Positions 1-16,437 are shown, numbered from the stretch's first letter. The stretch is 32,000 nucleotides of DNA from Nitrosococcus oceani ATCC 19707 (GCF_000012805.1 NC_007484.1:2040001-2072000), one strand, 5' to 3'. The notes: generated from the sequence alone by a model not told the origin. Numbers and translations: made by a program.

Positions 1-2946
1 ATTGTTGGCCAGGGCATCGTAGAAGGCTACTTCATCCGGGTTCAGGCCCAGGGCTTCGTCGCGCTCCAGTTCCGCCTGGAATTGCTTGGCCATGGCGATC
101 AGCTCTTCTATCACCTGGGCGGTTTCAATGCCCCGGTTGTTGTATTGGCGCAGGGTCTCTTGCAGCCGATCAGCGTATTTCTTCTCCTGCACCACGTTAT
201 TGCGGGTTTTGGCCTTGATGTTGTCTTTCAGCAGCTTTTCCAGTAGCTCCACGGCGAAATTCTTGTAAGGCATCCGCCGCACGTCTTCGAGGAATTCCTC
301 CGAGAGCAGGCCGATGTTAGGTTTATCTAATCCGCACAACGCAAACACGTCGGTCACGCCTTCCGCCACCAGGGCATTGTCCAGGATCTGCTTGAGGGCG
401 GAATTTTTTTCCTCCTGGGTCAATTTCTTGTCCACGCGGGTGTGCTTGGTAAGGGCAGCCTTCACCGCCGATAGGAAAGCGACCTCCTTATGATAGGCCC
501 GGGCCTCCTCCAGGGTGCCACACAAAGAGTAGGCCATATTCACAGCAAGAATCGTATCGAGGAAACGCTTCTTACCGCCCTCAAGGCTCAATATATAGTT
601 GGCGGTGGGAATCAGCAATCGGGTCGCCTCATGCTCAAAGCTGCTGTAATCAAAGCCAGCATTTTGGGGTGTCTTGGCAAACAGCCCGTGGATAATGTCC
701 AGCTTCTCCAGCAGCACGGCAAAGGCTTCTTCCGCGCTGTGGGTCGGCTCGCCCTTGCCCTTGGCGTCGGTATAGGTTTTCAGGGCTTGCTTGAGCGCAT
801 TGGCGATACCGATATAGTCCACCACCAGCCCGCCGGGCTTGTTCTTGAACACCCGGTTGACGCGGGCAATGGCCTGCATCAGGTTATGGCCTTTCATGGG
901 CTTGTCCACATACATGGTATGGCAGCAAGGGGCGTCAAAGCCGGTGAGCCACATATCCCGCACAATCACCAGCTTGAGGGGATCATAGATGTCCTTGAAG
1001 CGCTTCTCCAGTCGTTTCTTGGTCTGCTGGTTGTAAAGGTGCGGTTGCAACAAGGGCCTGTCAGAGGCGGAGCCAGTCATCACAATCTTGATGGCCCCTT
1101 TCTCCGGGTCCGGGTCGTGCCAGTCCGGGCGCAGGGCGACAATCTCATTATACAGATGCACGCAAATCTCCCGGCTCATGGCCACGATCATGGCTTTACC
1201 GTCCATGGACTGAGAGCGGATTTCAAAGTGCCGCACCAGATCGGCAGCCACCTGCTTAAGCCGCGGCCCAGACCCCACCAGCTTTTCCAGGCGGCTCCAC
1301 TCGCCCTTGGTTTTTTCCCGCTGGCCGAGGTCTTCCTCATCCTCCACCACTGCTTCCACTTGGTCGGATAATTTCTCAATCAGCTCCCGGTTGATATCCA
1401 ATTTGGCCAGCCGGGATTCGTAATAGATGGGCACGGTAGCCCCATCGTCCACCGCATCCTGAATGTCATAGATGGACACATAATCGCCGAACACGGCGCG
1501 GGTATCCTTATCTTCATTGGCAATGGGGGTACCGGTAAAACCGATAAAGGAGGCATTGGGCAGGGCATCGCGCATGTGCTTGGCGTAGCCGAAGGTGTAG
1601 CGGCCATCCTTCTTCAGGGTGGCCTTAAGGCCGTACTGACTGCGGTGAGCCTCGTCGGAAATCACCACGATATTATGGCGGTCGTTGAGAATGGGATGAT
1701 CGTTCTCCCCATCCAGCAGGGCGAATTTCTGCACCGTGGTGAAGATAATGCCACCGGATGCCCGCTCGGCCAGCAAGCGGCGCAGGGTATCCCGGTCTTC
1801 CGCCTGCACCGGTTCCTGCTTCAGCAGTTCCTTGGCGGCGCTGAAGGTGGCGAAGAGTTGGCCGTCCAGATCGTTGCGGTCGGTGACCACCATCAGGGTC
1901 GGGTTGTTCATCTCGGGCTGTTGCAGCAGCTTGCCCGCGTAGCAGCACATGGAAAGACTCTTGCCGGACCCCTGGGTGTGCCAGACCACGCCGGCCTTTT
2001 TGCTGCCCGGCACCAGGTCATCGGCGTAGGTGGCGCGCTTTTCACCGGCCCAGCGCTGCCTGGGCTCCTGGGCGGCAATCACGGTGGCCTTCACCGCTTC
2101 CCGCACCGCGTGGAACTGGTGATAACCGGCAATCTTCTTGCTCAGGCGACCGGAATCCGTCTCGAAAATGACGAAATAACGAAGGTAATCCAGGAACAAT
2201 TCCCGATCGAAGAAACCCCGCACCAGGGTTTCCAACTGCCAGTCCAGCAGGGGCTTGTCGTCCTCGTGCTTGAGAGTGCGCCAGGGCATAAAGCGCTCCT
2301 GGTTGGCCGTAAGCGAACCCACCCGGGCATGGTAGCCGTCGCTGATTACCAGCGCCTCGTTAAAGACGAACAGCTCGGGGATTTCGTCCTTGTAAGTCTG
2401 AAGCTGATGGAAGGCATCCCAGATGTCCACATTCTCGGCATGGGGGCTTTTCAGCTCCAGCACCGCCAAGGGCAGGCCATTGATAAAGCAAATAATATCC
2501 GGGCGGCGCAGTTGCTTGCTCCCCAAGAGGGTGAACTGATTGATGGCCCGGAAGCGGTTGGCGTTCAGATCATCGAAATCGATCAGCAACGCCCGGTCGT
2601 GGACTATTTTCTCTTCCCTTTCCCTCACCCCGGCCCTCTCCCAGGGGGAGAGGGAGGATAGGGTCTTGTATTCAACCGGCACCCCTTCCAGCAGTAACCG
2701 GTGAAAGGCTCGATTGCTGACCACGGTATCCAGGCTTTCGGGCTTACCAACCACCGCCACTACCTGCTCGATACAGCTTTCCGGCAAGTGGGGGTTGATG
2801 CGGCGAATGGCCGCTTCCAGATCGGCCAGTAACCATACTTGGCGGTAATCAGCACGCCCAGGCGCCAGATCGGAGCCGTGGGCCAGTTCCCAACCGCCCT
2901 CGGCAAACCAGGCCAGGCATTGTTGTTCCAGTTGCTCTTCGGTCAT
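1..2946 (-). CDS. hsdR: Type I restriction enzyme R subunit (HsdR); the C-terminus runs off the left edge of the window
   Basis: Absent from the ORF track because it has no stop codon inside the window. Hand translation of the minus strand from the ATG at 2946-2944 stays open to base 1 (982 codons). It begins [23 protein letters not shown]. It contains [12 protein letters not shown] (Walker A-like), [12 protein letters not shown] (DEAH box), [21 protein letters not shown] and QAIARVNR, which are typical SF2 helicase motifs of HsdR. The long plus-strand ORFs 490-1371 and 1576-2661 are its antisense shadows. Confidence 0.93.
2616..2657. repeat. Solo copy of a GC-rich hairpin element (ccctttccctcaccccggccctctcccagggggagagggagg) inside hsdR
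   Basis: It has the same sequence family as the head of the hsdM arrays at 7216-7252 and 8036-8070, and as the inverted copy at 7468-7510. It contains the inverted repeat ctctccc / gggagag. It is read through in frame as ...[19 protein letters not shown]... in the N-terminal region of HsdR. Confidence 0.7.
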
Positions 2947-2949
2947 TCC

Positions 2950-3963
2950 TCAGTCCTTATGCCCGGCGGGCTCCTTAAGCAGAATGAAATGCTCAATAAG
3001 CCGGATCATCAGGGTTTTCTGATCCGGCAAGCTTTCGGCCACCAGCAGCGCCAGGGCTACCAGGGTGTTGTCATTGATCAATTGTGCTACCGGTTTGGCT
3101 AATAGGTGCCGGTTGCGTTGCAGATACCACAAAAACAAAAATGAGCCTGTCCGTTTATTACCGTCCGCCAGGGGATGATTTTTGATCACAAAATAGAGCA
3201 AGTGGGCGGCGCGGCTTGCCACGTTCGGGTAGAACAACTCATCGCCAAAGCCCTGTTCAATGGTGGCCAAGGCCGAGGCCAACCCATCACCGCGAATCTG
3301 ACCAAACAGCTCGGTGGCTTCGTCCTTGGCGATCAAAGTTTGCTTAAGCTCGCTAATGGCCCGCAGCGCCTCATCCAGCGCTAGCGGCAGCATATCGGTC
3401 TGCTTAATGCCGATCTCTGTCAAATGTTGTTCATCATAACCCTGCAGCAGGCTCCAGGAGCGGGCGTAATCGCTGATTACTTGGGCCACGGCTTCGCCTT
3501 CGGCGGAAACCATGCCTTGGTTGGCGAGCGTGCGGCTGAGCAAATTCACCGCCTGCTCGAACTCGATGCCCCGCTCAGCTAAGCGGCGCTGGTTGAGGGT
3601 GTAGCCCTGTACCAGATGGTCTTTGAGGACTTGGGTGGCCCATTGGCGGAACTGGGTGGCGCGCTTGGAGCTGACCCGGTAACCCACGGAGATAATGGCA
3701 TCGAGATTGTAGTGTTTGATGCGGCGACGAACCTGTCGCGTGCCCTCCTGACGAACTACCGAGAAATCCTCGGTAGTTGCCGCTTCCTCCAGCTCACCTT
3801 CCTGATAGATGTTTTTCAGGTGTAAGCCAATATTGTCTGTCGAGGTATCGAACAATACTGACATCTGCGCCTGGCTCAACCACACCGTTCCCTGCTCCAG
3901 CGCCACTTCCAGCTGGGCCTGGCCATCGTTTGAGGTAAAAATCTGTATTTGCTGGTCATTCAT
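2950..3963 (-). CDS. RhuM-family protein with a C-terminal Fic/Doc-like domain
   Basis: The N-terminus (IQIFTSNDGQAQLEVALEQGTVWLSQAQMSVLF...YNLDAIISVGYRVSSKRATQFRQWAT) matches my recollection of the RhuM virulence-protein family. The C-terminus has HPLADGNKRTG, a Fic/Doc core motif of the Doc type (GNKR rather than GNGR). I prefer the ATG at 3963 (GAGG 9 nt upstream) to the ATG at 3978. The stop lies 3 nt before the hsdR ATG. Confidence 0.8.
   Translation of the reverse strand: MNDQQIQIFTSNDGQAQLEVALEQGTVWLSQAQMSVLFDTSTDNIGLHLKNIYQEGELEEAATTEDFSVVRQEGTRQVRRRIKHYNLDAIISVGYRVSSKRATQFRQWATQVLKDHLVQGYTLNQRRLAERGIEFEQAVNLLSRTLANQGMVSAEGEAVAQVISDYARSWSLLQGYDEQHLTEIGIKQTDMLPLALDEALRAISELKQTLIAKDEATELFGQIRGDGLASALATIEQGFGDELFYPNVASRAAHLLYFVIKNHPLADGNKRTGSFLFLWYLQRNRHLLAKPVAQLINDNTLVALALLVAESLPDQKTLMIRLIEHFILLKEPAGHKD
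3753..3867. repeat. 115-bp segment identical to 5209-5323; core of a longer diverged direct repeat (3551-3963 versus 5136-5419)
   Basis: Base-by-base comparison of the two rhuM N-terminal regions shows perfect identity from gaactaccgag to gacatctg. Flanking sequence is visibly diverged. Confidence 0.85.
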
Positions 3964-4048
3964 CGTTCGCGGCCTCATCTCCTTATCGGGCCAAAGATAG
4001 AATGGAAAGTCAGCGCCTCTAGGCTAACAACCACCAACAATCTCCCTG

Positions 4049-4154: not shown

Positions 4155-5120
4155 CTAGCGCCATAGCTCCCACGTCTCCCAGCTTTCTGGCATTCCCATA
4201 TCCTGTAAGCTCACGGTGCCCGACACAGTCGCGGGAAATTCTTGCACCAATGCCTGAAAGCGCTGTGCCCACGTCGAATTGGGGCAGATATTTCGCAACA
4301 ACTTCTGGATCAGACAGAAATAGAAAAACGGTCGGGCGTTGCTCAGCGTTTGCCAATATGAATCATCGACCAGCGGTGCCGAACGCTCCAGCACGTTAAT
4401 GTTCCACAGGCGGCTGTGATGGGCGGATACGTTACGAATAAAATTCAGGCTACGCACCCACTCGGCCAGGGTACCACCATCTGTTGCCCCGTACTTGGCG
4501 GCGATCCGGCCCTTATCGGCTGGTTTCATCCCCGCATAGAGCTTAGACATCATGCCGAAATCCCAGACCTCGACAGCCACCCAAATCGGCAACTGGCCGT
4601 ACTTTTTGAGGTAATGCTCCACAAAAGGCTCGCGCCGGGCACGATGCAGATTCTGCTGGTATCTCTCAAGCCACACCTGATGCCATGTCTTGCCCTTGGC
4701 GTAACCCTTACGCTGAATCTGCTTGCTGAAATGGCCATGAAAGCAGTTAGGATTTTCATGGGCATGGATATCCTGCTTTCCCAGGAGGTGGGCGATATCC
4801 ACCCGCAAAGCCATCTCGATGCGTTCCAGGGCGTCCAGCGCCAGCAGCCGCAGCTTCTTATCGAATACGTAGAGTTGAACCACTTCCCGGAAATGGCTGC
4901 CTGCAACAAAGACGTTACTGCGGCGATCAGAAATCTTCCCCCCGTCACCCTGCTGGCGCTCAAGCTGTCGAAAGGGATACCAGTATCCACTGAGCCGGTA
5001 ATATCCGATGCGCTGAAGATAGCTCTTGGCGGCTTCGCAATCATCCACCTGTAACCCGCGCTCCATGAGGATTTCGAGCTGCTCCCCGAAGGGTTTCCAT
5101 GACTTAGGTGTTGGCGTCAC
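4155..5120 (-). CDS. Abi_2-family (AbiD/AbiF-like) abortive-infection protein
   Basis: 321-aa ORF with LQRIGYYRLSGYWYPF near the N-terminus and IRNVSAHHSRLWN near the C-terminus. I recognise both as conserved motifs of the Abi-like (Abi_2) family. The GTG start at 5120 overlaps the stop of the upstream rhuM remnant (GTGA). Confidence 0.8.
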   Translation of the reverse strand: MTPTPKSWKPFGEQLEILMERGLQVDDCEAAKSYLQRIGYYRLSGYWYPFRQLERQQGDGGKISDRRSNVFVAGSHFREVVQLYVFDKKLRLLALDALERIEMALRVDIAHLLGKQDIHAHENPNCFHGHFSKQIQRKGYAKGKTWHQVWLERYQQNLHRARREPFVEHYLKKYGQLPIWVAVEVWDFGMMSKLYAGMKPADKGRIAAKYGATDGGTLAEWVRSLNFIRNVSAHHSRLWNINVLERSAPLVDDSYWQTLSNARPFFYFCLIQKLLRNICPNSTWAQRFQALVQEFPATVSGTVSLQDMGMPESWETWELWR

Positions 5121-5419
5121 ACAGTGGCCTCCGTAGCCTGCTCAAACTCGATGCCACACTCAGTGTAGTGTTTGATGGGGCGGCGAACCTGCCGCTTTCC
5201 TTCTTGGCGAACTACCGAGAAATCCTCGGTAGTTGCCGCTTCCTCCAGCTCACCTTCCTGATAGATGTTTTTCAGGTGTAAGCCAATATTGTCTGTCGAG
5301 GTATCGAACAATACTGACATCTGACTTTGGATGAGCCACACTGTCTCCTGCTCCAGCGCCACTTCCAACTGGGCCTAGCCATCGTTTGAGGTGAAAATCT
5401 GTATTTGTTGATGCGTCAT
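5117..5419 (-). pseudogene. Degraded paralog of the N-terminal part of the RhuM-family gene
   Basis: From the ATG at 5419 it reads MTHQQIQIFTSNDG, then an in-frame TAG at 5377-5375 where the intact copy has CAG. An internal deletion of about 130 bp relative to 3580-3708 joins ...IKHY to ...GIEFEQA. Homology stops exactly at the abi start. Confidence 0.8.
5209..5323. repeat. 115-bp segment identical to 3753-3867
   Basis: See the 3753-3867 feature. Together the two copies form direct repeats bracketing abi. Confidence 0.85.
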
Positions 5420-5514
5420 AAGTTATTTCTTTCTTCCTTGAATGTGCTTGTGTGGATTACCTTATCCAATTTTCTTGTGAGCCGATTAGGTTAGCTATTC
5501 GGCTCAGAGGCCAG

Positions 5515-6966
5515 TCAGAGGAGGCTGTCCTCTGTGCAAGCGCTGACATCCATTTCGGATACCCGGCTTTCGGCGTCCGATATCGAAAGCTCACCGGAGA
5601 GGAGTTTGGGTAGGAGGGTGTCGCGTAATGTAGATAATGTGATTGATTCAAGCCGAAGCTCAATCTGCTTTTCCAGGATGTTACGTAAAGAGTTACCCGC
5701 GTCCGAGATAAGTTGCTCACAGGGAATAGCGCATAGAGCACGCTTCAGGTGTTCTCTTTTAATGTGCCCCATGGTGACGGCTTTGTCAGCTGCAATACGC
5801 TGAAAATCTTCAAGATGGTGCTGGGTGAAATGATAATAAAGCCATTTGGGGTGTGTTTCGGAGGTAACCTTAAATAGATGCTGGTTTAAGGCTGCTCTGC
5901 CTCCACACCATGTATCGACGAGTAGTGAGCCTGACCACGAAAAAACTACGTCGCCATTATCTATGATGCACTCGGGGTTGATATTTGGAGACGCTTTTTC
6001 TTCACCATCTGCATAGCCTTTTTTCAGTTGTGCGATTTTAACCACGGGCAGGTAGTCATTTTCATTCTCTGGCCTGAATTTTTGAAGAGCTAAGCCGTTT
6101 TTGTATTTGGCAATGTCATCGAGTGCGCGGCAACTCCACCCCTCCGGAATCTCCCCCAACTCACTATCTTGCATGGCCGACGGAAATAGCTCGGCGGTGG
6201 TGCGGAGTTGGGCGTATTGCTCGGGCTGTTCGGCCTGAAGGCGGGTGAGTTGTTCCGAGGATTTGCCGGAAATGGCCTGCATGGCGGCAAGCAGGGCGTC
6301 TTCCTGGCTGCCGCCGGCTTTCAGTGCGGCGATTTTGGCTTTGACCGGCTCGAAATCCACAAACCAACTTTTGAAGATGGCTTGGGCCATTTGTTCGAGG
6401 ATTTGGTTGATTTGGTGGTTTAGACTTATTTTGTCGCTAATGCTCCAAAGGATATTTGCAATGGACTGTTGCAGGTTAATTGGCGGTATTCTAGTTTCGT
6501 ATGAAGTTATTTTGTTTGGCGATGTGTGCAATATTTTTGTGCCAGTGGCACTTCCCGCCAAATAACGGTTGAAGTCATAAGAAAGAAAGACCCAATATAA
6601 AAAAGGCGCCCAAACTTTTTTGGGCTCTTTTACTATGAGCTTTCCCAACCGTTGGTTGTGAAGGTACACTTCATCGTCTTCTGGAATTATTCCCGGCAGT
6701 CCTAGAATTTCACCACCTGGGGTTTGGCACGTCATTGCAAGAAGAACATCGCCAGGTTGAAGTTGATACTCTTTGGGGTAGTCCTCTGTGTACCGCTTTA
6801 TTCTAGTGCTTGAAAAACGAAAACCACCGGAATAATCAAAGTTTCCAATTGCTACAACGATAGGTCCTTTGATCACACTCTCAGCCATGTGCTTTCCTTT
6901 GAAGGCCCAGCCATGCTTAATCTCTATCAACTTCGATAATGTCACGAGAGGCCACTCACAACTCAT
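5515..6966 (-). CDS. hsdS: Type I R-M specificity subunit (HsdS)
   Basis: It has the two-domain layout typical of HsdS. Two variable, lower-GC recognition regions are separated by a conserved helical region (QILEQMAQAIFKSWFVDFEPV...) and followed by a conserved C-terminal helix (RDTLLPKLLSGEL). The ATG at 6966 overlaps the hsdM stop (ATGAGTTGTGA). The ORF-track start at 7023 lies inside hsdM and is less likely. Confidence 0.85.
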   Translation of the reverse strand: MSCEWPLVTLSKLIEIKHGWAFKGKHMAESVIKGPIVVAIGNFDYSGGFRFSSTRIKRYTEDYPKEYQLQPGDVLLAMTCQTPGGEILGLPGIIPEDDEVYLHNQRLGKLIVKEPKKVWAPFLYWVFLSYDFNRYLAGSATGTKILHTSPNKITSYETRIPPINLQQSIANILWSISDKISLNHQINQILEQMAQAIFKSWFVDFEPVKAKIAALKAGGSQEDALLAAMQAISGKSSEQLTRLQAEQPEQYAQLRTTAELFPSAMQDSELGEIPEGWSCRALDDIAKYKNGLALQKFRPENENDYLPVVKIAQLKKGYADGEEKASPNINPECIIDNGDVVFSWSGSLLVDTWCGGRAALNQHLFKVTSETHPKWLYYHFTQHHLEDFQRIAADKAVTMGHIKREHLKRALCAIPCEQLISDAGNSLRNILEKQIELRLESITLSTLRDTLLPKLLSGELSISDAESRVSEMDVSACTEDSLL

Positions 6967-9505
6967 ATCCCAGCCTCCCCAGATTCCGCTTGATTTCAGC
7001 TTCCAATCGATCACTCTCGGCAAATTGCTCCCGCAGTTGCTCGGTCAGTCGCATCATTTTCTCGGCGAAGGGTTCGCCGTCGTCTTCCTGTTCCGGTGCG
7101 CCGACGTAGCGGCCCGGCGTCAGTACGAAGTCGTGCTTTTTGATGTCGTCCAGGCTGACGGATTTGCAGAAGCCGGGGATGTCCTGGTAGGTGGTTGCCC
7201 TCTTTGCACTCTTTGCCCTCACCCCCGGCCCCTCTCCCAGAGGGAGAGGGGTGTTTTGCTGACCCTCCCCTGCTAGAGGGAGAGGGGTATTTCGCTGGCT
7301 CTCCCCTGTTAGAGGGAGAGGGGTGTTTTGCTGGCTCTCCCCTGTTAGAGGGAGAGGGGTGTTTTGCTGACCCTCCCCTGCTGGAAGGATATGCTGATTC
7401 TCCCCTGCCGGAATGGCCTCGCTGCCCCGGTCGTCGCCCCGGGGCAAGGTGACGCGGGGTGTTGAAGCCCTCTCCCTCTGGGAGAGGGTTTGGGTGAGGG
7501 AAAGGGTGAGCGTGTTGTAGATGGACTCCAGTACGCCTTCCGTCTCGGTCAAAACCTGCCGGTTGTTAAAACGCAGCACTTGAATCCCTATTTCCTGGAG
7601 ACGTTGTGTCCGACGGGCATCCCGCTGCCTTCCTTCAGGCGTCAGGTGCTGGCTGCCATCCAATTCGACCACCAGCCGGTGTTCATGGCAATAAAAGTCC
7701 GCGATGTAATCCTCAATGGGCTGTTGGCGGCGGAACTTGGCATTGGCCATCTGGCGATTTCGCAGCAGTTGCCAAAGCAGATTTTCCCCATCGGTCTGGT
7801 TTTTTCTTAGCTCGCGGGCGAATCGCAATAGCTTGGGTGGGGTTTGGCCCTTACCCCGGCTCTCTCCCAAGGGAAGGGGGGGAATACGCTGCCAGGCATG
7901 GAAGGTGTCGGCGATTTTGGCAATATCATCCAAGGTGAAGTCCCGCAGCACCCGGTCGCGCATGTAGCCCAGGTTGCGGGCGTCGATAAACAGGAATTCC
8001 CTGCGGCGGTCCCGCTTGCTCTCTTTGCCCTCTTTACCCTCACCCCCTGCCCCTCTCCCAGAGGGAGAGGGGTATTTTGCTGATTCTCTCCCGCTGGAGG
8101 GAGAGGGGTGTTTTGCTGACTCTCCCCTGCTAGAGGGAAAGGAGTGTTTTGCTGGCTCTCCCCTACTGGAGGGAGAGGGGTGTTTTCCACCGGCTTTGTC
8201 TTTGGTCAAAAACCAGATGCAGGCCGGGATCTGGGTGTTGGTAAAGAGCTGCCCCGGCAGGGCCACCATGCACTCCACCAGATCTTCTTCAATCAGGCGC
8301 TGGCGGATTTTCCCTTCGTTGTTGGTGTGGGCGCTCATGGAGCCGTTGGCCAGCAGCAGGGCCATGCTACCGGTGGGTGCCAGATGGTGAATCATGTGCT
8401 GCATCCAGGCAAAGTTGGCGTTGCCCTTGGGCGGGGTGCCGTATTGCCAGCGGGCATCGTCCGCCAGGGATTCGCTCCACCAATCCTTCATGTTGAAGGG
8501 CGGGTTGGCCATGACGAAATCGGCCCGCAGATCCGGGTGCTGGTCGTCCAGGAAAGTGTCGGCGTTCTTTTTGCCGAAGTTGAAATCGATGCCCCGAATG
8601 GCCATGTTCATGGCGGCCAGCTTCCAGGTGGTGGGGTTGGATTCCTGGCCGTAGACGGAGATATGCTTTTTTTGCTCGGCGGGATCGTAGTGCTGTTCCT
8701 TGGCGTGCTCCTCGATGAACTTGTCGCTGGAGACAAAAAAGCCGCCGGAGCCCATGGCCGGGTCGTACACCCGGCCCGAATAGGGTTCGAGCATTTCCAC
8801 AATCAGGGTGACGATGCTCTTGGGGGTGTAATATTGGCCGCCTTGCTTGCCTTCGGCCAGGGCGAACTGGCCCAGGAAGTATTCGTATACATGGCCGAGG
8901 ATGTCTTTGCTGTGCAGGTGTAGCTTCTCCCCGCCGTACACCGGCTTGGTGAAAGAGGTATCGGAGAAGGTATTAATCAGCCCCAGCAGCTTCTCGTTTT
9001 CCAACTGGTACTGGCTGATGCGGTTGAGGATGCCCCTGAGCTTGGCGTTGCTCTTTTCGATAGCTTCCAGGGCGTTATCCATCAGCCAGGAGACGGAGCG
9101 CAGCTTGACATCATTGCCCGCATCGTCCTGCCACAGCACGGTGCCCACGGGCAGCACGGCTTTTTCTTTCACGGTATTCCAGCGGGCCGCTTTGGGCACC
9201 CAGAATACGTTGGCTTCGCGATAGTAGTCCAGGATTTCCAGCTCGTCCCGCAACGCCTGCTGATAGTCGGCGTCACCGTCGTAGTCTTCGGGAGAGAGGT
9301 AGTAGATGTCGTTGCTTTCATCCTTGAACAGTGCCAGCAGTTGCTCCTGGCGCTCTTCAAAGGCGTCAGAGACGTATTTGAGGAAGATAAGCCCGAGCAC
9401 CACGTGCTTGTAGTTGGCGGCGTCCAGGTTAGCGCGCAGCTTGTCGGCGGCCTTCCAGAGCTTATTGTCCAGGGACTTGAGAAATTGCTGTTCCGTATCG
9501 TTCAT
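6956..9505 (-). CDS. hsdM: Type I R-M N6-adenine DNA methyltransferase subunit (HsdM), expanded to 849 aa by in-frame insertions
   Basis: The HsdM N-terminal domain reads LWKAADKLRANLDAANYKHVVLGLIFLKYVSD. SAM-binding motif I is VYDPAMGSGGFF. Catalytic motif IV is FVMANPPF. The conserved C-terminus is YQDIPGFCKSVSLDDIKKHDFVLTPGRYVG. The reading frame is open across two inserted blocks, about 8021-8188 and about 7196-7888. Confidence 0.9.
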   Translation of the reverse strand: MNDTEQQFLKSLDNKLWKAADKLRANLDAANYKHVVLGLIFLKYVSDAFEERQEQLLALFKDESNDIYYLSPEDYDGDADYQQALRDELEILDYYREANVFWVPKAARWNTVKEKAVLPVGTVLWQDDAGNDVKLRSVSWLMDNALEAIEKSNAKLRGILNRISQYQLENEKLLGLINTFSDTSFTKPVYGGEKLHLHSKDILGHVYEYFLGQFALAEGKQGGQYYTPKSIVTLIVEMLEPYSGRVYDPAMGSGGFFVSSDKFIEEHAKEQHYDPAEQKKHISVYGQESNPTTWKLAAMNMAIRGIDFNFGKKNADTFLDDQHPDLRADFVMANPPFNMKDWWSESLADDARWQYGTPPKGNANFAWMQHMIHHLAPTGSMALLLANGSMSAHTNNEGKIRQRLIEEDLVECMVALPGQLFTNTQIPACIWFLTKDKAGGKHPSPSSRGEPAKHSFPSSRGESAKHPSPSSGRESAKYPSPSGRGAGGEGKEGKESKRDRRREFLFIDARNLGYMRDRVLRDFTLDDIAKIADTFHAWQRIPPLPLGESRGKGQTPPKLLRFARELRKNQTDGENLLWQLLRNRQMANAKFRRQQPIEDYIADFYCHEHRLVVELDGSQHLTPEGRQRDARRTQRLQEIGIQVLRFNNRQVLTETEGVLESIYNTLTLSLTQTLSQRERASTPRVTLPRGDDRGSEAIPAGENQHILPAGEGQQNTPLPLTGESQQNTPLPLTGESQRNTPLPLAGEGQQNTPLPLGEGPGVRAKSAKRATTYQDIPGFCKSVSLDDIKKHDFVLTPGRYVGAPEQEDDGEPFAEKMMRLTEQLREQFAESDRLEAEIKRNLGRLGYEL
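7200..7424. repeat. Hairpin-repeat array A: a ~60-bp head followed by 36-bp tandem units (three clean, two degenerate)
   Basis: The head is ctctttgcactctttgccctcacccccggcccctctcccagagggagagggg. Units lie at 7263-7298, 7299-7334 and 7335-7370 (ctctcccctgttagagggagaggggtgttttgctgg), each with the ctctccc/gggagag inverted repeat. Decayed units follow to about 7424. In the hsdM frame the array reads QQNTPLPLTGES repeats. Confidence 0.85.
7468..7510. repeat. Inverted-orientation copy of the GC-rich element, flanking the DUF559 module on its 3' side
   Basis: ccctctccctctgggagagggtttgggtgagggaaagggtgag is close to the reverse complement of the hsdR copy at 2616-2657 and of the array heads. Confidence 0.6.
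7508..7840 (-). other. DUF559 (Vsr-like / PD-(D/E)xK-fold endonuclease) module translated in frame within hsdM
   Basis: The sequence is PPKLLRFARELRKNQTDGENLLWQLLRNRQMANAKFRRQQPIEDYIADFYCHEHRLVVELDGSQHLTPEGRQRDARRTQRLQEIGIQVLRFNNRQVLTETEGVLESIYNTL. It matches the DUF559 pattern as I recall it: AR.LR...T.AE..LW..LR....KFRRQ.PI..YI.DF.C....L..ELDG..H........D..R...L...G..VLRF.N..V. The acidic and His positions (DF, ELDG, H) are retained. There is no ATG of its own directly upstream. Confidence 0.75.
7848..7882. repeat. Direct-orientation degenerate copy of the GC-rich element, flanking the DUF559 module on its 5' side
   Basis: cccttaccccggctctctcccaagggaagggggg resembles ccctcaccccggcccctctcccagagggagagggg. 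With 7468-7510 it forms an imperfect inverted-repeat pair around the DUF559 coding segment. Confidence 0.55.
8021..8188. repeat. Hairpin-repeat array B: the same head plus about three 36-bp units
   Basis: The head ctctttgccctctttaccctcaccccctgcccctctcccagagggagagggg is nearly identical to the array A head. Units lie at 8084-8119, 8120-8155 and 8156-8188. Orientation matches array A, but hsdM reads it in a different frame (GESAKHPSPSSR-type repeats). Confidence 0.85.
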
Positions 9506-10775: not shown

Positions 10776-12056
10776 TTATGCAATATTCCCATAACTTAAA
10801 AAGTTAGGAGTAACATTCTTTATCTGATAAATTTCTTTTTTAGAAACAGCATTGGTAATTACCGCCGATCTCCAAGACATTAAGCTGGTTTGCGGTTCAA
10901 AAATTCCGTGTTCATACCTGCTAAAATTCTGGGCAAAAATTCTGTTTTTGTCATGCCCTTTCCATCGTATGGAAAAATCCTTGTTGACCTTGAAACATTT
11001 ATTTTCATCAAATTCAATAAGATGTTTTATAGGCTCAATAAATCCTGGAATTCTGTTCTCAAACCCGGTACACAAAATAACAATATCAGCCTCCATGGAT
11101 TCTTCTTTTTGAGAAAAATTATTGGAAATAGTTAATTTATAACCTTTTCCATTGCTCTCTACCCCTTGAATCCTTCGATAAGGAAGTATTTTAAAATCAA
11201 TCGGTGATTGCTCTACATTTTGAATGAAATAAAGATCATTATAAAGGCTTTGCAGGTAGGTGGGGGTATTACCATCGCTAGATAATTTTTGGTAATCTAC
11301 AATATTTCTTTTGAGTTGAGGGTTTATGGAAAAAAAATCTTCTACGTAATGGGGGCTAAAATACTCATTAGTAAAAGGCGATTCATCTAAAGGCTCAAGG
11401 TTTGCCCTGCTGGAGACAAGAGTTAGGGATTTTGCATTTCCCCATTTTCTCCTAAGAGCATTTCTAAAAACTTCAACGCCTGTTTGCCCACCGCCGATAA
11501 TAACAATACGCTTGCCACTGACATCCAGATTTTTTATTGATTCTGATTTCGCATGGAAGAAAGTATCGCCAATATAGGGCACGGTAAACGACGGAATTTT
11601 AGGGCTAACTCCTGTTCCGATGCAGATATTTTTGCTTTTAAATCTTTCTTTTTGATTCTCAATAATAAAATTCTCTCCATCATAATAGAGATTTTTTATT
11701 TTTGAATTGAAAGATAATTTTTCCGGCATTTGCCGGGTAACCCACTGGCAATAAATTTCAAACTCTCTCCTAGTAATAACATGCCTTTTGGTATTCATAA
11801 ATGAATGAAAAAACCCATTCATGACAAGATAATTTAGAAAAGAATAAGGGCTCGTAGGATCAACGCCCGTTACCAGATCCTTTAGAAAAGCCGTTTGCAT
11901 ATCCGAGTCTGGAAAGATGATTTCCGAATGCCAAAGAAATAATGGTTTTTGTTCAAAAAAATGAGTTTTTAATTCTTTATTTTTTTCTGAGATAGCAGCC
12001 AAGCTTAAATTAAACGGGCCAATCCCAATACCGACTAAATCAAATACATCACGCAT
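10776..12056 (-). CDS. iucD: Lysine/ornithine N-hydroxylase (IucD/PvdA/AlcA family flavin monooxygenase)
   Basis: The N-terminal FAD fingerprint is DLVGIGIGPFNLSLA and a second dinucleotide fold is RIVIIGGGQTGVE. It is the last gene of an A-B-C-D ordered operon. Its ATG overlaps the iucC stop (ATGCGTGA). GC content is very low. Confidence 0.85.
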   Translation of the reverse strand: MRDVFDLVGIGIGPFNLSLAAISEKNKELKTHFFEQKPLFLWHSEIIFPDSDMQTAFLKDLVTGVDPTSPYSFLNYLVMNGFFHSFMNTKRHVITRREFEIYCQWVTRQMPEKLSFNSKIKNLYYDGENFIIENQKERFKSKNICIGTGVSPKIPSFTVPYIGDTFFHAKSESIKNLDVSGKRIVIIGGGQTGVEVFRNALRRKWGNAKSLTLVSSRANLEPLDESPFTNEYFSPHYVEDFFSINPQLKRNIVDYQKLSSDGNTPTYLQSLYNDLYFIQNVEQSPIDFKILPYRRIQGVESNGKGYKLTISNNFSQKEESMEADIVILCTGFENRIPGFIEPIKHLIEFDENKCFKVNKDFSIRWKGHDKNRIFAQNFSRYEHGIFEPQTSLMSWRSAVITNAVSKKEIYQIKNVTPNFLSYGNIA

Positions 12057-13785
12057 AAAGATAATCTTTTTCTATCAGCGGATTTAGCAGGGGATTTCCA
12101 AGCTGTGGTTTAGGTCTCTGGGCCGTATCTTGATAGCCAATGATAAAGCGGACCTTATTTAAAAGAACACGATGATAATTGGGCGTCAATAGGCTTGGAG
12201 TCTTTGATCTTGTTGGGTATTTTTTTTCATAATCATGAATTATCGTGCCTAATACACTATAGAATTTTTTTTCCTTATAGCCATGAGAGAGAAAAAGCGC
12301 CTGCGAAATAAATCTAAGAACTGAAATAAAATGCCCCGTGATAAGATCGTAGATAATATGATCAGAGGGTAAAATATCTAATTTTTCAATCGTTTTATCG
12401 GAAAAATATTTCCTTGTTTCCGCTGGAAAATTTTTATTTAAACGTAAGTCACCATGAAAATCCTTAATAATTAAGCCTGAAGGGGCATTATTATTTAGCT
12501 TTAGTATGGTATTTTGACCATGTGCAACCAAGCCAATTCCATAGTGAGACTGAAGGTGATAAAGGGGAATAACAACTTTTTTAAAATATTCTTCCAGCCA
12601 TTCATCAATGGTTAGAGAAGAATTTTCTATTAAGCAACCAATCAACGATTTTTTATTCCCGTCCAAATAAGAAAGCGCGCCTGTCATCAAGCATTTCTCA
12701 TTGCTTTTAAGCTTGGTTACACTCGATTCTCTCCATACTGCCCCAAGGAATTCTTTATATTGATAAGGAGCACCTGGGATATTCTTATAGGAAGGCTCCA
12801 CATAACTAAAAGCTGCAATATCCTTTAAGCAATCCACATTAGCATTGAATAAACAATCATCCTGCTTAATAATAGCTTCAACGCCTTCCGATATTTCCGA
12901 AGCAATAGAAATATAGCGAGCAGGTATTCCTCGTATACAAGAAGTATTTAAAATTGAAATGGGCAGTTTAACGTCACAAAGGTATGGATTGCTGCAATTA
13001 GAAAACGTTCTTAGGGATATATAGGGTTTATAGCTATCGCCGGCACTAGATAAAAAAATTATATTATTTTTGCTGATATCTTTCTGGAAGAAGATTTTTA
13101 TTCTATTTTCCCACTGCCAAGGATGTATGGGAATAATGTAATAAGATTCGGCGTTATATTTTTTATTCGCTAATTTTTCTTTTAATAAATTAATTTCCCG
13201 TTTTTCAAGATCAGCGTAAATAATCTCACTAAAAAATTTTTCTTTTTGGTGATTTACCGTAACTAAATTCTTTTTGATAGCTACCCGGTAGAATTGGATT
13301 TCTTTAGCATGCTCTGGCGAGAACATGGAGAGATCGTCTGGAGACCAGCCTATTCTTCCCTTGTTTAAAATAATTTTTGGATGCCCATCCAGATAACTTT
13401 CCACCTCTAAGAAACCAAGTTGGGACATTTCCTGGGAAGATATTTTCTTTTTCAAAATAGTTTGATCGCTATAAAGCGTATGTAGCATTTCTTCCATAAA
13501 ATTAGCTAAGGTAATATCATTCATTTTTGTAAGATGCTGTGTTTCCTTAAAAAAATTTGCAGCATCAAGTTCTAAACCATCACTTCTCTTTAATGATCTT
13601 TCATCTATAACAAGGTGGCACCAGACACTTTTATATGCCTCAAAAATGTAAGTTAAATTTTCCTCTATTTTTAACGCATATAATCCCTTTTTTATTTCCC
13701 GTACTTCCTGAGAAATGATCTCCTCAAAATAAAGTTCACTTATGGCTTTAGCAATAAGATTCCTATTGGCTATTTCCCAACTCAT
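12049..13785 (-). CDS. iucC: IucA/IucC-family NRPS-independent siderophore synthetase
   Basis: It shows IucA/IucC hallmarks (IPIHPWQWENRI and AHGQN). The ATG at 13785 forms an ATGA overlap with the iucB stop. The ORF-track start at 13821 would overlap iucB by 40 nt. Confidence 0.85.
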   Translation of the reverse strand: MSWEIANRNLIAKAISELYFEEIISQEVREIKKGLYALKIEENLTYIFEAYKSVWCHLVIDERSLKRSDGLELDAANFFKETQHLTKMNDITLANFMEEMLHTLYSDQTILKKKISSQEMSQLGFLEVESYLDGHPKIILNKGRIGWSPDDLSMFSPEHAKEIQFYRVAIKKNLVTVNHQKEKFFSEIIYADLEKREINLLKEKLANKKYNAESYYIIPIHPWQWENRIKIFFQKDISKNNIIFLSSAGDSYKPYISLRTFSNCSNPYLCDVKLPISILNTSCIRGIPARYISIASEISEGVEAIIKQDDCLFNANVDCLKDIAAFSYVEPSYKNIPGAPYQYKEFLGAVWRESSVTKLKSNEKCLMTGALSYLDGNKKSLIGCLIENSSLTIDEWLEEYFKKVVIPLYHLQSHYGIGLVAHGQNTILKLNNNAPSGLIIKDFHGDLRLNKNFPAETRKYFSDKTIEKLDILPSDHIIYDLITGHFISVLRFISQALFLSHGYKEKKFYSVLGTIIHDYEKKYPTRSKTPSLLTPNYHRVLLNKVRFIIGYQDTAQRPKPQLGNPLLNPLIEKDYLYA

Positions 13786-14606
13786 AAGTAGCCGCCTGTA
13801 AAAAACCTCTCCCGGGTACACTCTAGGAGGACCGCTCTTTTATGGGGAAAATCAAATTCTTTAATTCTTTTCCAAAAAGGAAGAAAATCAACGTATTTCA
13901 ACACCTTTTTATTATCGGATCGCGGCTCAGCCATAATCTTTAAAGTTCTGGGCTCATCAAGAAAAAGATAATGGATAACACTTTTTAGCATAGCGCCTGT
14001 ATTTTTTAATCCCAGAAATTTTTTTTCCCCAATCAGGAAATGGAACCCTCTATCAAAATCACCGCTTTCGTAATAGGCTCCTAAACGATCCTCTTTAACC
14101 CAATAAAGCTCAAAATAACCAGTAGGTTCATCATTAATATCTAATATGACAGGAATGATATGGGGGTCATTTAAATTTTTTTCTATATACTGAAGATGAT
14201 TTTCCCTTGTATCTTTTAATTCCCAAAATTCCGAGATACGTGGCTGATTGTGCCATCTCGAAAATGTATCGATGTCATTTTTTGGATCGATGACCCGAAA
14301 AGAAATAGTTTTATCTATTTCGTAGACAAACCTTTTGTAGAGCAGAGTTCCCCTTTCTGGATTATGCCTTATTGGATGAGAAACCCTGTTAGTTTCTGTC
14401 CAAACTACGGGGTAAAGTCCTCTTTCAGGATTCATTAGCCAATAAGGAGGAATTTGGAAAAACTCGTTTCTGCTGATTATTGTTTTTTTATCACCTGGCT
14501 TTATTTCTGCTTCTTTAACATCAGGTATAAATTTATTTTTTAAAAATTCTTCTTTTTCCTTATCTAAAAGAATATCGTTAACTCTTAATTTTTTTTTATC
14601 TATCAC
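13782..14606 (-). CDS. iucB: N-hydroxylysine acetyltransferase-like GNAT (IucB/AlcB family)
   Basis: Its position between two IucA/IucC synthetase genes and its size fit IucB-type siderophore acetyltransferases, as does the pattern FRVIDPKNDIDTFSRWHNQPRISEFWE...GFHFLIGE. It has a GTG start 6 nt after the iucA stop. Confidence 0.72.
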   Translation of the reverse strand: MIDKKKLRVNDILLDKEKEEFLKNKFIPDVKEAEIKPGDKKTIISRNEFFQIPPYWLMNPERGLYPVVWTETNRVSHPIRHNPERGTLLYKRFVYEIDKTISFRVIDPKNDIDTFSRWHNQPRISEFWELKDTRENHLQYIEKNLNDPHIIPVILDINDEPTGYFELYWVKEDRLGAYYESGDFDRGFHFLIGEKKFLGLKNTGAMLKSVIHYLFLDEPRTLKIMAEPRSDNKKVLKYVDFLPFWKRIKEFDFPHKRAVLLECTRERFFTGGYL

Positions 14607-14612
14607 GGTTTT

Positions 14613-16295
14613 TTAAAATTTTGAAGACAAGGGATTTTGAATAAAATTATAAATATCCAAAGGATTTTTCTCAGTGTTCTCGTTAATATCCTTTAGGCAA
14701 CAGAAAAAATTTCCTTTTTGTCCTATTAAATCTGAATCAAGAAGATAATCAAGAAATGATTTGTCTAAAATATCGCTATTTTTTTTGTCTAACAAATATT
14801 CAACAAGCATATGAAGAAGATCTTCTTCATTACATTTTTTTTGTATTGCTAGTGCATTTATTAAACTAAATGTCGAATTAATAATAAGATAATATCCAAG
14901 AAGTATATGAGCCATCTTTCTATCTAGGATATTTCCATTGTCCAGATCCAGCAAAGGTACCTCTTGCCTCATCTTTTCATAACCAAGGCTGGTATACCCT
15001 GTTCCCTGGCAGTCTCTAAAAATAACCCCAAAGGGATAGCTCTTATCATTTAACTGAACAATTATATTCTGCTGGTGCGCGCCAAAAAGAATGCCATGGT
15101 TAGCTTGGGCCATTATAAATGGATCAAGCACATAGTTAAGATAAAGATAGAACCATTTTTTAGCATCAATGTTACGTGATGAGAAAAAACCTTTTTCCAG
15201 ATAGGGATCAGCTTGCGCTATAGTTGATAAAACAATTGCTTCAGAACACATTTGTCCTCTAAAAGGATTGGCTCTTATGAGCACAATTGTTTCTATAATG
15301 AGATTGCTCGATTTTCCCTTAATAGCAAGAAATGAGGGTTCACATAAGATGTGAAAATTTTTATTTTTGTTAAGGAAATCTTTTCCATTACTAGAATTAA
15401 TCACATCATGAACTTGAATCCCTCTAACAATTTCAACTTCCTGCAAATGTCGGATGGAATTCGTGATTCTCAGCGACAGAGAAAATTTGAGCATATAATG
15501 GCTATTTTCACAGTAAATAGTTCTTAATGAACTTGTCGCCTTCCATTTTAAACGCCCTTCCTTTTCAATTGGTATTAAATCTTTGTCCTTTATTAATTCT
15601 TTAATTTCTTTATGGTTGCTTAGAGATTTAAACTGCCAAGGATGAAAAGGGAATGGTATATAACCGTCCTTAATGACTGTTTCATGATCTTGTTTAAAAA
15701 GATCCGCATACCAATCTATATTATTGAAATACTCAGAATTTTTCTGAATAAGGTGTTCTTTATTCAAGAAAGCCCATTTTAAATTAAAATTTCCTTTAAA
15801 TTCTGGCGCATATAAGTGGTGATCTTCTTGGCTAAATTGCTCTTTACTTTTTGGGCACGGATGGAAATTATGTCCCAGTAATAACGCCTGCTCCGCTTCA
15901 ATAAAGGACAAGGAATTTTTTTTAAAAAGCTTTTTATAATCTTGCTTTCTGTAGTCTAGTATTTGAGCAATATTATTATGGCTTTCCATAATTCTTTGGT
16001 AAAGTCCTGGCATTTCATCATTCTTATTTACCCACCTAAGAAATTCGCGAATGAAATCTTCAAAATTCAAGAATTTCTTTTTGTTTCCTAGAATTTCATA
16101 AAAGATATTTAAATAAGAATGATTTCCTACCCTTGAATAATTCTCAAGCACGATGCTCAAGGTTTGCTCGTTATTTTTAAATATGATTTCGTTATTTTCT
16201 ATTTCAAAATCACTACACTCTCTCAAAAAAGAATTTATAAGAGCGGTAACGGAGTGTTTTTCAGCAAGTTTATTTAACTCGTTATTCTCTTTCAC
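14613..16295 (-). CDS. iucA: IucA/IucC-family NRPS-independent siderophore synthetase
   Basis: It contains FPFHPWQFKSL and GAHQQN motifs and is the first gene of the operon. It has a GTG start with GAGGG 6 nt upstream. Confidence 0.85.
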   Translation of the reverse strand: MKENNELNKLAEKHSVTALINSFLRECSDFEIENNEIIFKNNEQTLSIVLENYSRVGNHSYLNIFYEILGNKKKFLNFEDFIREFLRWVNKNDEMPGLYQRIMESHNNIAQILDYRKQDYKKLFKKNSLSFIEAEQALLLGHNFHPCPKSKEQFSQEDHHLYAPEFKGNFNLKWAFLNKEHLIQKNSEYFNNIDWYADLFKQDHETVIKDGYIPFPFHPWQFKSLSNHKEIKELIKDKDLIPIEKEGRLKWKATSSLRTIYCENSHYMLKFSLSLRITNSIRHLQEVEIVRGIQVHDVINSSNGKDFLNKNKNFHILCEPSFLAIKGKSSNLIIETIVLIRANPFRGQMCSEAIVLSTIAQADPYLEKGFFSSRNIDAKKWFYLYLNYVLDPFIMAQANHGILFGAHQQNIIVQLNDKSYPFGVIFRDCQGTGYTSLGYEKMRQEVPLLDLDNGNILDRKMAHILLGYYLIINSTFSLINALAIQKKCNEEDLLHMLVEYLLDKKNSDILDKSFLDYLLDSDLIGQKGNFFCCLKDINENTEKNPLDIYNFIQNPLSSKF

Positions 16296-16381
16296 TTAAC
16301 CCTCAAGAGACTGCCGTTAAAGATCATGCGAGACGCTGCTTTAATCTATTTTAGGTACGAATACTAGCACTAGTTTATTGC

Positions 16382-16402
16382 TAATACAAATTATTTGTAT
16401 TA
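16382..16402. promoter_or_regulatory. 21-bp perfect palindrome TAATACAAAT-T-ATTTGTATTA; candidate operator in the divergent iucA / transporter promoter region
   Basis: It has 10-1-10 dyad symmetry, verified by hand. It overlaps a minus-strand TATAAT (16404-16399) upstream of iucA. It also sits between a plus-strand TTGCTA (16378-16383) and TATACC (16401-16406) upstream of the transporter ATG at 16438. Confidence 0.4.
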
Positions 16403-16437
16403 TACCTATAGTCTTTAATTTAAATCTGGATACGCCT

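Follow-up and report, generated by a model that had tools for sequence, protein, structure and literature searches.

A predicted DUF559 nuclease module bounded by inverted hairpin repeats is read through in frame within hsdM of Nitrosococcus oceani

We analyzed a 32,000-nucleotide stretch of Nitrosococcus oceani ATCC 19707 (GCF_000012805.1 NC_007484.1:2040001-2072000), called the window below, with positions counted from its first letter. It holds a type I restriction-modification (R-M) operon on the minus strand, and the methylase subunit gene of this operon, hsdM, carries a DUF559 nuclease module and repeat arrays as two in-frame insertions. The hsdM open reading frame (ORF; 6956..9505) is a single stop-free frame of 849 amino acids (aa), and its product is 100% identical to the "N-6 DNA methylase [Nitrosococcus oceani]" on record in 5 contigs. 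Using Pfam on the 849-aa product, we found HsdM_N (PF12161) at residues 12 to 180 (E=2e-21) and N6_Mtase (PF02384) from residue 199 in three stretches (E=2e-105). The catalytic NPPF motif is present as ANPPFNMKDW, and PDB 3khk matches at E=1e-260; the TIGR00497 score of 142 is below the equivalog cutoff of 243. We assigned the gene to hsdM on the basis of HsdM_N, N6_Mtase, the NPPF motif, and an operon with hsdS and hsdR. ORF and Pfam analysis showed hsdS (5515..7023, minus strand) to be intact, with Methylase_S and two target-recognition domains. The hsdR ORF (1..2946, minus strand) starts at 2946, is open for at least 982 codons, and is cut by the window edge. The operon as a whole (hsdM, hsdS, a small ORF, Abi_2, RhuM/Fic, and hsdR) seems intact, and HsdM function is therefore probably retained.

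We used Pfam and alignments with orthologs and 3khk to separate HsdM proper from the insertions. Residues 1 to 437 (8195..9505, minus strand) comprise HsdM_N and the N6_Mtase catalytic core with NPPF, and end in ...CIWFLTKDK. Residues 497 to 539 (7889..8017, minus strand; KRDRRREFLFIDARNLGY...IADTFHAWQ) form a conserved stretch that separates the two insertion loops, and residues 771 to 849 (6956..7195, minus strand; TTYQDIPGFCKS...LGYEL) form the C-terminal region, which overlaps the start of hsdS. The smaller insertion, at what we call site 1, is 59 codons long (8018-8194) and lies between FLTKDK and KRDRR. At the second site (site 2), HsdM breaks off at FHAWQ (Q539, 7891-7889) and restarts at TTYQDIPGF (T771, 7195-7193). 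The 231 codons in between (693 bp, 7196-7888, codons 540 to 770) are foreign to HsdM as aligned, in frame, and without a stop. A first-pass annotation, made from the sequence of the window, had placed the same break after ...IADTFHAWQ, the resumption near 7195, and 231 stop-free codons between them, and our alignment and the ORF agree with it. Together the two loops add 290 residues; minus both insertions (231 and 59 codons), HsdM is 559 aa, close to the size that the annotation had given. The 693-bp block is composite: a DUF559 cassette of about 426 bp (7463-7888) is joined to a 267-bp part made of a hairpin-repeat array (7196-7462).

The cassette contains a 111-aa DUF559 core (residues 556 to 666; 7508..7840, minus strand) of the Vsr/EDxHD fold, as assigned by Pfam, structural models, and Foldseek. 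The Pfam match to DUF559 (PF04480) covers residues 560 to 666 (window 7508-7828) and profile positions 4 to 108 of 109, with E=1.6e-37 and 128.2 bits against a cutoff of 20.6. The NCBIfam entry PRK09767, "DUF559 domain-containing protein," matches at 79.8 bits, under its equivalog cutoff of 218. We compared 87 DUF559 copies and found that all 25 positions conserved in at least 90% of them are kept in the N. oceani copy; the conserved residues kept include D601, E612, D614, H618, D627, R630, and R643. These results bear out the view of the first-pass annotation that a complete-looking DUF559 domain lies in the frame and on the strand of hsdM with its key residues retained. The comparison of selection among DUF559 copies that the annotation had proposed was also informative: the core has a length of exactly 111 aa in each of four copies embedded in hsdM, nonsynonymous divergence (dN) is 0.16 to 0.27, and synonymous divergence (dS) is saturated. 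As judged from these alignments, the DUF559 cassette is intact and under purifying selection, and the nuclease looks functional by sequence and model.

We modeled the isolated module (predicted local distance difference test [pLDDT], 86) and searched the PDB with Foldseek. The best match was the solved DUF559 protein 3hrl (template modeling [TM] score, 0.91; root mean square deviation, 1.5 A), which phmmer also found (3hrl_A; E=2.9e-16). The second-best match was the catalytic domain of I-Bth0305I (3r3p; TM score, 0.81; E=2.4e-4), ahead of Vsr (1vsr). In the full-length AlphaFold model the methylase core is poor (mean pLDDT, 58), so that we used this model solely for the contrast in confidence between DUF559 and the linkers and took the loop positions in HsdM from the 3khk sequence alignment. 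Both repeat-derived segments of HsdM are predicted to be disordered (pLDDT of about 30, versus 81 to 96 for DUF559), and the predicted pattern is that of a folded domain on disordered tethers. In Pfam searches of the insert we found no NUMOD or helix-turn-helix (HTH) modules, just DUF559 and the related MTES_1575 and DUF2726; only about 15 to 20 cassette residues precede the DUF559 core. Reading the sequence directly, we saw no start codon or ribosome-binding site of its own for DUF559 within N. oceani hsdM. For this reason, the nuclease is probably made only as part of HsdM.

The cassette is flanked by two inverted copies of an asymmetric element of about 30 bp each, in which a 9- to 10-bp hairpin is followed by CCGGGGTGAGGG; GGTGAGGG also follows the hairpin in each of these repeats. 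The left terminal repeat (7841..7888, minus strand) has a degenerate hairpin (7860-7880) followed by CCGGGGTAAGGG and is read as RIPPLPLGESRGKGQT. The right terminal repeat (7463..7507, minus strand), inverted relative to the left one, is CCCTCACCC-AAA-CCCTCTCCC-AGA-GGGAGAGGG, with a perfect palindrome at 7468-7488, and is read as (T)LSLTQTLSQRERAS. Inverted hairpin flanks had been described in the first-pass annotation, and both the copies and their orientation hold. Across 7 hsdM loci the left repeat is CCTCTCCC-N3-GGGAGAGG-N5-GGTGAGGG and the right repeat is CCCTCACCC-N3-4-CCCTCTCCC-N3-GGGAGAGGG. The stems of the right repeat are nucleotide invariant in these 7 loci, third positions included, while the dS of DUF559 is saturated.

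The same hairpin recurs without the nuclease. In the window, the palindrome CCCTCTCCC-NNN-GGGAGAGGG occurs 5 times, versus 0.02 expected. The remainder of the site 2 block (7196..7462, minus strand) consists of a spacer, a tandem array (array A; 7239-7389, 36 bp x 4.2), a terminal hairpin (7230-7250), and GGGGGTGAGGG with an A-rich tail; it is read as NTPLPLxGE...GEGPGVRAKSAKRA. The site 1 insertion (8018..8194, minus strand; residues 438 to 496, 177 nucleotides [nt]) is built alike, from array B (8061-8186, 36 bp x 3.5), a perfect terminal hairpin (8051-8071), and then GGGGGTGAGGG plus an A-rich tail. It is read as HPSPSSRGE.../PSPSGRGAGGEGKEGKES and has no counterpart in close orthologs or in PDB 3khk. 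A solo hairpin (palindrome 2634-2654, CCGGGGTGAGGG, and an A-rich tail; 2615..2665, minus strand) lies in frame in the N-terminal loop of HsdR.

Arrays A and B had both been reported in the first-pass annotation. Part of array A and the site 1 element are 89% identical across 171 nt, and the two arrays are translated in different frames, as NTPLPLxGE (A) and HPSPSSRGE (B). We also found no stops in two of the repeat DNA's three sense frames. From these two observations it follows that the peptide sequence of the repeats is not the conserved thing, and at the level of sequence there is no selection on the repeat peptides. Two arguments of the annotation also need correction. Its estimate that 231 stop-free codons would arise by chance with a probability of about (61/64)^231 does not apply, since the DUF559 part is genuine coding sequence and read-through of repeats that are stop-free in two of three sense frames is much easier than this figure implies. 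Its argument that the module had to land in the right strand and frame was likewise overstated.

To place these features among relatives, we used homologous proteins (P-numbers) and genome loci (L-numbers), of which 88 were fetched. A genome scan with one genome per species, seeded with the hsdM copy, provided 80 listed loci with relatives. DUF559 is flanked on both sides by the hairpin repeat, in the expected orientations, in 38 of these 80 loci from many phyla, and the density of the hairpin beside DUF559 is 41 times the background. In-frame hairpin units are found at HsdM site 1, at HsdM site 2, and in HsdR, as well as in loops of P0004, P0253, L006, and L017. The N-terminal loop of HsdR, which has the solo hairpin in N. 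oceani, is empty in L003 and holds a bigger hairpin pair in L006. The 36-bp array unit was absent from all 88 fetched loci.

Some hairpins are paired with no DUF559 between them. We saw pairs of a right-type and then a left-type hairpin, 70 to 160 nt apart, at L002 (about 7341), L003 (8143/8302), L006 (6244/6313, in hsdR), and L012 (501/617 and 2667/2756); these pairs may be the form that the non-autonomous element takes. The terminal hairpins (7215-7252 and 8036-8075, minus strand) gave a weak match to Rfam whalefall-1 (16 bits versus a gathering threshold of 37, E of about 0.7), which is probably due to chance. In a published table of predicted programmed-inversion targets, "DUF559 domain-containing protein" and "endonuclease domain-containing protein" are enriched, with odds ratios of 14 and 9.6 (PMC9881135). 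Hairpin inverted repeats that flank DUF559 could lie behind this enrichment.

The first-pass annotation had named ortholog alignment as the way to look for empty sites, and we found both sites empty in the nearest HsdM orthologs. DUF559 is present in 3 of the 120 best HsdM homologs, and typical orthologs are about 570 aa long. The N-terminal regions of the closest orthologs are up to 91% identical to N. oceani HsdM. Neither insertion is present in P0022, P0027, P0041, or PDB 3khk. At site 2, empty orthologs and 3khk have FHAWQ, 3 to 4 residues, and then YEDI.GFC, and the empty site of L088/L089 reads TTCCATGCGTGGCAG-CGTGGTGAA-ACGTACGAAGAC. The ortholog alignment shows that the two insertion loops are indel-prone spots of the HsdM family; site 2 separates the methylase core from the C-terminal HsdS-binding region.

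Site 2 is filled in several lineages. In-frame related cassettes are present there in L001 (a Halothiobacillaceae metagenome-assembled genome [MAG]), L002, L003 (Methylomonas rosea), L008, and L014, and in its clean form the insertion reads [FY]HxW[QR]x / SPLPxGExLGEG-DUF559-LTPTLSQRER[GA] / YxDIxGFC, with the slashes at the junctions. Decayed copies also occur: L016 has one in a frameshifted hsdM, and L007 is an hsdM remnant with an internally deleted DUF559. In P0241, P0253, and P0304, a different DUF559 subfamily is in frame at site 1; the identity of P0304 to the N. oceani protein is only 42%.

Several of these loci showed further features. In L003, a stop-containing element of about 250 bp (5170-5442) interrupts the hsdM methylase domain after ...IRGIDFNF, and the DUF559 cassette downstream of the interruption is still in frame with both HsdM flanks. 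P0005, P0010, P0031, and P0093 (Marinobacter/Ectothiorhodospira type) have another in-frame filler at site 2, RRAGAQVSRSPGMDESD, which is unrelated to the hairpin element and may be a different in-frame repeat that uses the same loop. In L006, a DUF559 ORF (2154-2693) lies between intact hsdM and hsdS and overlaps the hsdS start. Its end duplicates about the last 14 codons of HsdM (KKNLMGLGYEC), and P0128, P0144, and P0153 end likewise. DUF559 likewise lies between these two genes in L010 and L012, and L010 has an extra C-terminal HsdM fragment. The duplicated HsdM end suggests that an older filled hsdM left a remnant or that a coupling sequence was carried along.

We then compared the histories of host and cassette, and these carry signatures of lateral movement. 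On a 98-sequence HsdM tree, Fitch parsimony requires at least 5 gain/loss events for the 6 filled alleles, and for each of P0001, P0002, and P0003 the closest HsdM relatives have no insertion. The DUF559 and HsdM trees conflict: L006 and L010 group together at 100% for DUF559 and fall in separate HsdM clades (100% and 84%). The filled allele L001 and the empty allele L089 are 88 to 99% identical in nucleotide sequence save for codons of about 420 to 500, around both sites, where identity is 69 to 79%; over these codons L001 is nearer to the filled N. oceani allele (80 to 87%). This mosaic tract, seen in one filled/empty pair, is the pattern expected when a cassette and its immediate flanks move jointly by homologous recombination. 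On the basis of parsimony, the tree conflict, and the mosaic tract, we rejected strict vertical inheritance. The DUF559 copy in the HsdR of L013 is nearest to the HsdM copy of L014 (72%), a case of host switching, and DUF559 lineages are mixed among hosts in that the two MetRS copies are not sisters, while the MetH copies form one clade.

Hosts extend beyond HsdM. DUF559 lies inside a long stop-free frame in 20 of the 80 listed loci. Hosts identified by Pfam include an HsdR-type helicase, MmeI, a Type ISP enzyme, HsdS (L080), RlmL, and EpmA. In MetRS (two lineages), DUF559 lies between the anticodon and tRNA-binding domains, in RecJ between DHH and DHHA1, and in four MetH hosts between the pterin and B12 domains; of the last, L030 was confirmed by Pfam, and three more (Anaerolineales MAGs) were judged by similar long frames and closely related DUF559 sequences. 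Across this sample of sequences, in-frame DUF559 cassettes are general, with at least nine other host protein families. In most loci the family is standalone, and the read-through copies lie at interdomain linkers. Most of the copies closest to that of N. oceani (at least 57% identity) belong to type I R-M operons, some in frame and others as ORFs of their own; the latter lie between hsdS and either hsdM or hsdR (R-M examples are L004, L006, L010, and L012). In 39 plasmid records (phages were outside this search) we found standalone DUF559 genes only, at less than 60% identity, and no R-M-embedded copies.

We consider it probable that the N. oceani cassette is a selfish, homing-endonuclease-like element with hairpin inverted repeats that survives in genes by read-through at permissive loops and linkers and is accompanied by non-autonomous hairpin satellites. 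The first-pass annotation had offered a selfish element that persists as a translated surface loop as one of two readings. We favor it, in a form widened by the empty orthologs, the recurrence, the unrelated hosts, and the shift of frame between arrays. According to this model, 7463-7888 would be a compact, autonomous-looking cassette with the 111-aa nuclease between inverted repeats, and 7196-7462 would be a non-autonomous derivative, a tandem hairpin array with a sister copy at 8018-8194 and a solo copy in hsdR. The cassette would spread from one allele of a host gene to another by homologous recombination, whether nuclease stimulated or ordinary, as in homing, and would occasionally jump to new sites. 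Within genes, only read-through copies would survive. Read-through would be eased by G+C-rich palindromic ends, which are stop-free in most frames and encode flexible linkers rich in Pro, Gly, Ser, and Glu, and by the 36-bp (12-codon) repeat unit. The cassette would use the promoter and ribosome-binding site of the host gene, and the nuclease would stay on the host protein as a folded extra domain on disordered tethers, with no RNA or protein splicing.

Several observations weigh against this model. The incongruence support is moderate among the strictly in-frame site 2 copies, where L002 and L003 group at just 64%, and the DUF559 alignment is short (106 columns). Ordinary recombination between alleles, common in R-M genes, could have produced the mosaic tract, which gives no direction (gain versus loss) and proves no involvement of the nuclease. 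We found no target-site duplication at filled versus empty junctions. The identical protein on 5 contigs provides no evidence of presence/absence polymorphism within N. oceani. Host frequencies are biased because the scan was seeded with the hsdM copy and covers the best 80 loci, and the in-frame examples outside R-M are mostly from MAGs. R-M enzymes are over-represented among in-frame hosts, and this, like the strong purifying selection and the constant 111-aa length, would also fit a useful domain. Nuclease activity, cleavage site, and mobility are predictions from sequence and models.

A broader claim would be that hairpin-ended DUF559 cassettes are a distinct and widespread class of autonomous mobile elements that colonize coding sequence without splicing machinery. 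Such elements would be made for read-through, with stop-poor palindromic ends that code for flexible linkers and a nuclease that folds compactly, and would rely on the transcription and translation of the host gene. The nuclease displayed on the host protein would drive copying into empty alleles, solo hairpins and arrays would be non-autonomous satellites, and R-M enzymes, as DNA-acting proteins whose genes travel horizontally, would be a preferred but not exclusive niche. We put this forward tentatively, as a possibility that falls somewhat short of an even chance.

One alternative is that the cassette moves by hairpin-directed transposition, in the manner of repetitive extragenic palindromic (REP) sequences with their associated RAYT transposases or of MITEs (miniature transposable elements with inverted repeats) with a transposase. 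DUF559 would then be a nuclease dedicated to a hairpin-repeat family; it would recognize the hairpin ends and bring the cassette, as well as hairpins that are solo or in arrays, to new sites, and in-frame copies within genes would be the survivors. The 41-fold enrichment beside DUF559 in a consistent inverted orientation, the invariant stems, the solo hairpins and arrays in neighboring loops and genes of the same operon, and the host switches between unrelated genes all fit such a mechanism. So does the 171-nt near-duplicate (89%) at the second site in another frame, which points to recent copying. However, target-site duplications are lacking, empty hsdM alleles have no hairpin landing pad at site 2, and the tract in hsdM resembles co-conversion and points to homologous recombination for spread from allele to allele. 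In addition, a Vsr-fold nuclease of about 110 aa such as DUF559 does not, to our knowledge, belong to any transposase family. We regard this alternative as somewhat unlikely, at about one chance in four.

It is also conceivable that DUF559 has been exapted in R-M hosts, so that a nuclease tethered by flexible linkers to the M2S1 or R2M2S1 complex adds nicking or cleavage, repair, or an anti-anti-restriction role at or near the recognition site and is retained on that account. A genuine HsdM-nuclease fusion was the second reading of the first-pass annotation; a nuclease fusion has no obvious role in MetRS, MetH, or RecJ. A dN/dS ratio of about 0.1, the constant 111 aa with all conserved residues, and the fully intact operon are what a useful domain would show, as are the restriction of the closest DUF559 clade (at least 57% identity) largely to type I R-M loci, the five to six independent in-frame host/site combinations among R-M enzymes, and the lack of a separate start or ribosome-binding site in N. 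oceani hsdM. Set against these are the approximately 97% of close HsdM orthologs, the nearest included, that do without DUF559 and the occurrence of the same clade as separate ORFs beside hsdM or hsdS. DUF559 is also intact in L003 despite an hsdM broken by another element and decays in L007 and L016. Cassettes of this type are found in MetRS, MetH, RecJ, RlmL, and EpmA, where a nuclease role is not evident, its conserved inverted-repeat ends are typical of a mobile unit, and it matched no PADLOC defense model. On balance we judge such a functional fusion to be unlikely, about one chance in five.

Two other explanations fare far worse. It is very improbable that the block, instead of being an insertion, came down by vertical inheritance from the ancestor of a described HsdM subfamily: the same loop is occupied in N. 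oceani, L001, L002, L003, L008, and L014, but the nearest relatives of filled alleles are empty (at least 5 events), the trees are incongruent with a mosaic tract, a different DUF559 subfamily uses a different loop, and neither insert is present in the solved homolog 3khk. A disrupted pseudogene or an assembly artifact with an accidentally open frame can practically be discounted, for although the repeats are of low complexity and partly stop-free by composition, the 849 codons contain no stop and keep conserved HsdM sequence in one frame before and after the block, the protein is identical on 5 contigs, hsdS and hsdR are intact, and the same read-through architecture arose independently in L001, L002, L008, and L014. 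None of the results that the first-pass annotation had named as refuting it appeared: profile searches support DUF559, the block does not belong to the conserved sequence of an HsdM subfamily, and the frame is free of stops and shifts.

We returned to the selfish-cassette model and asked how it compares with known systems. Vsr-fold EDxHD homing endonucleases are found in group I introns, in split inteins, and as free-standing genes, with extra DNA-binding modules (PMC3239194, PMC2677866, PMC3384342). Their prototype, I-Bth0305I, has a catalytic fold in common with the modeled DUF559 core. The spacing of its D196, H213, and D222 (17 and 26 residues from the first) equals that of DUF559 D601, H618, and D627, a probable correspondence that we took from the spacing and the published residue numbering. 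Like the cassette, EDxHD homing endonucleases are selfish nuclease genes within conserved host genes, and the mosaic tract of the N. oceani-type cassette would parallel homing in indicating transfer from allele to allele with flanks. Multiple gains or losses, incongruent trees, and the mosaic tract are indirect indications, at the sequence level, of possible homing. The systems differ in that EDxHD endonucleases have N-terminal NUMOD/HTH modules, whereas the cassette has essentially the catalytic domain of about 110 aa only. It also has hairpin inverted-repeat ends and no intron or intein, and it stays in the mature frame. N. oceani DUF559 is not free-standing but read through in hsdM; relatives elsewhere are free-standing.

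Inteins with homing-endonuclease domains resemble the cassette in being in frame in conserved host proteins, often in DNA metabolism genes, with the nuclease expressed in the host polypeptide. Unlike inteins, the insert is too small (about 140 aa), has no Hint domain, and is presumably never excised from the protein. We rejected an intein: no Hint or intein Pfam model matched at E<=0.1, and the junctions (HAWQ followed by R, S, or K, and RER[GA] followed by Y) are without Cys/Ser/Thr or His-Asn. A self-splicing intron or ribozyme was also rejected, as an Rfam search of 6800-8400 at E<=1 gave chance-level matches only. As a known defense component, the DUF559 module can likewise be set aside, as it matches no PADLOC model.

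The repeats recall Rickettsia palindromic elements (RPEs), which are described as palindromic, in frame in unrelated genes, and translated as tolerated extra peptides (Ogata et al. 2000/2002, reviewed in PMC10969869). That account also gives them as about 150 bp long, non-autonomous, restricted to Rickettsia, and encoding no enzyme (PMC10969869). The solo hairpins and arrays here (the HsdR loop, HsdM site 1, and array A) behave in the same way. Unlike in RPEs, the repeat here borders a nuclease gene that is intact, in a system that extends across many phyla; the likeness is one of behavior. The cassette combines both known kinds in that it encodes an enzyme, is bounded by repeats, and stays in the reading frame.

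RAYTs are homologs of HUH Y1 transposases, and REPs are extragenic. The likeness to REP/RAYT and MITE/transposase pairs lies in a small nuclease gene associated with short hairpin repeats that are also solo and clustered. Unlike in RAYT/REP pairs, the enzyme here is a nuclease of the PD-(D/E)XK type with a Vsr fold, and it and the repeats often lie inside genes, where they are read through. Of the hallmarks of transposons and MITEs bounded by terminal inverted repeats, the terminal inverted repeats are present here; the target-site duplication and a recognized transposase are not. An HsdM of the 3khk type has the same HsdM_N and N6_Mtase with NPPF, followed by hsdS and, further downstream, hsdR, and differs from the N. 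oceani protein by the latter's 290 extra residues.

N6_Mtase plus DUF559 proteins are surely listed in domain architecture databases. In the open-access literature that mentions DUF559, we found no description of in-frame cassettes or of an insertion in hsdM; subscription literature and InterPro architecture tables were outside our reach. The N. oceani comparative genomics paper does not mention the hsdM insertion.

Other genes of the window lie around these features. Between hsdS and hsdR, in the same type I operon and all on the minus strand, are an 83-aa ORF (5117-5368), Abi_2 (4155-5120), and RhuM/Fic (2950-3978). Elsewhere in the window is a low-GC island (10776-16295, minus strand; 31 to 36% GC versus about 55 to 59% around it) that encodes siderophore proteins of the aerobactin type. 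The set comprises a lysine/ornithine N-monooxygenase (10776-12056), a GNAT acetyltransferase (13782-14606), and two proteins of the IucA/IucC-FhuF kind (12049-13821 and 14613-16295). A major facilitator superfamily (MFS) transporter (16378-17625) lies on the strand opposite to the island genes.

If the selfish-cassette model is true, selfish nucleases would have a third way to reside in genes, besides introns and inteins, in which they are tolerated as an extra domain in essential or conserved genes. This would explain thousands of "endonuclease domain-containing" annotations and odd Pro/Gly-rich segments in conserved proteins. The cassettes mark permissive insertion points in HsdM, HsdS, HsdR, MetRS, MetH, and RecJ, and they would account for split or over-long gene calls. 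A nuclease of about 110 aa with a conserved hairpin partner of about 30 bp makes a compact system, and the rules of its recognition could be of use. For R-M biology, the finding raises the question of how a type I methylase complex with two tethered Vsr-fold nucleases would behave compared with an ordinary complex.

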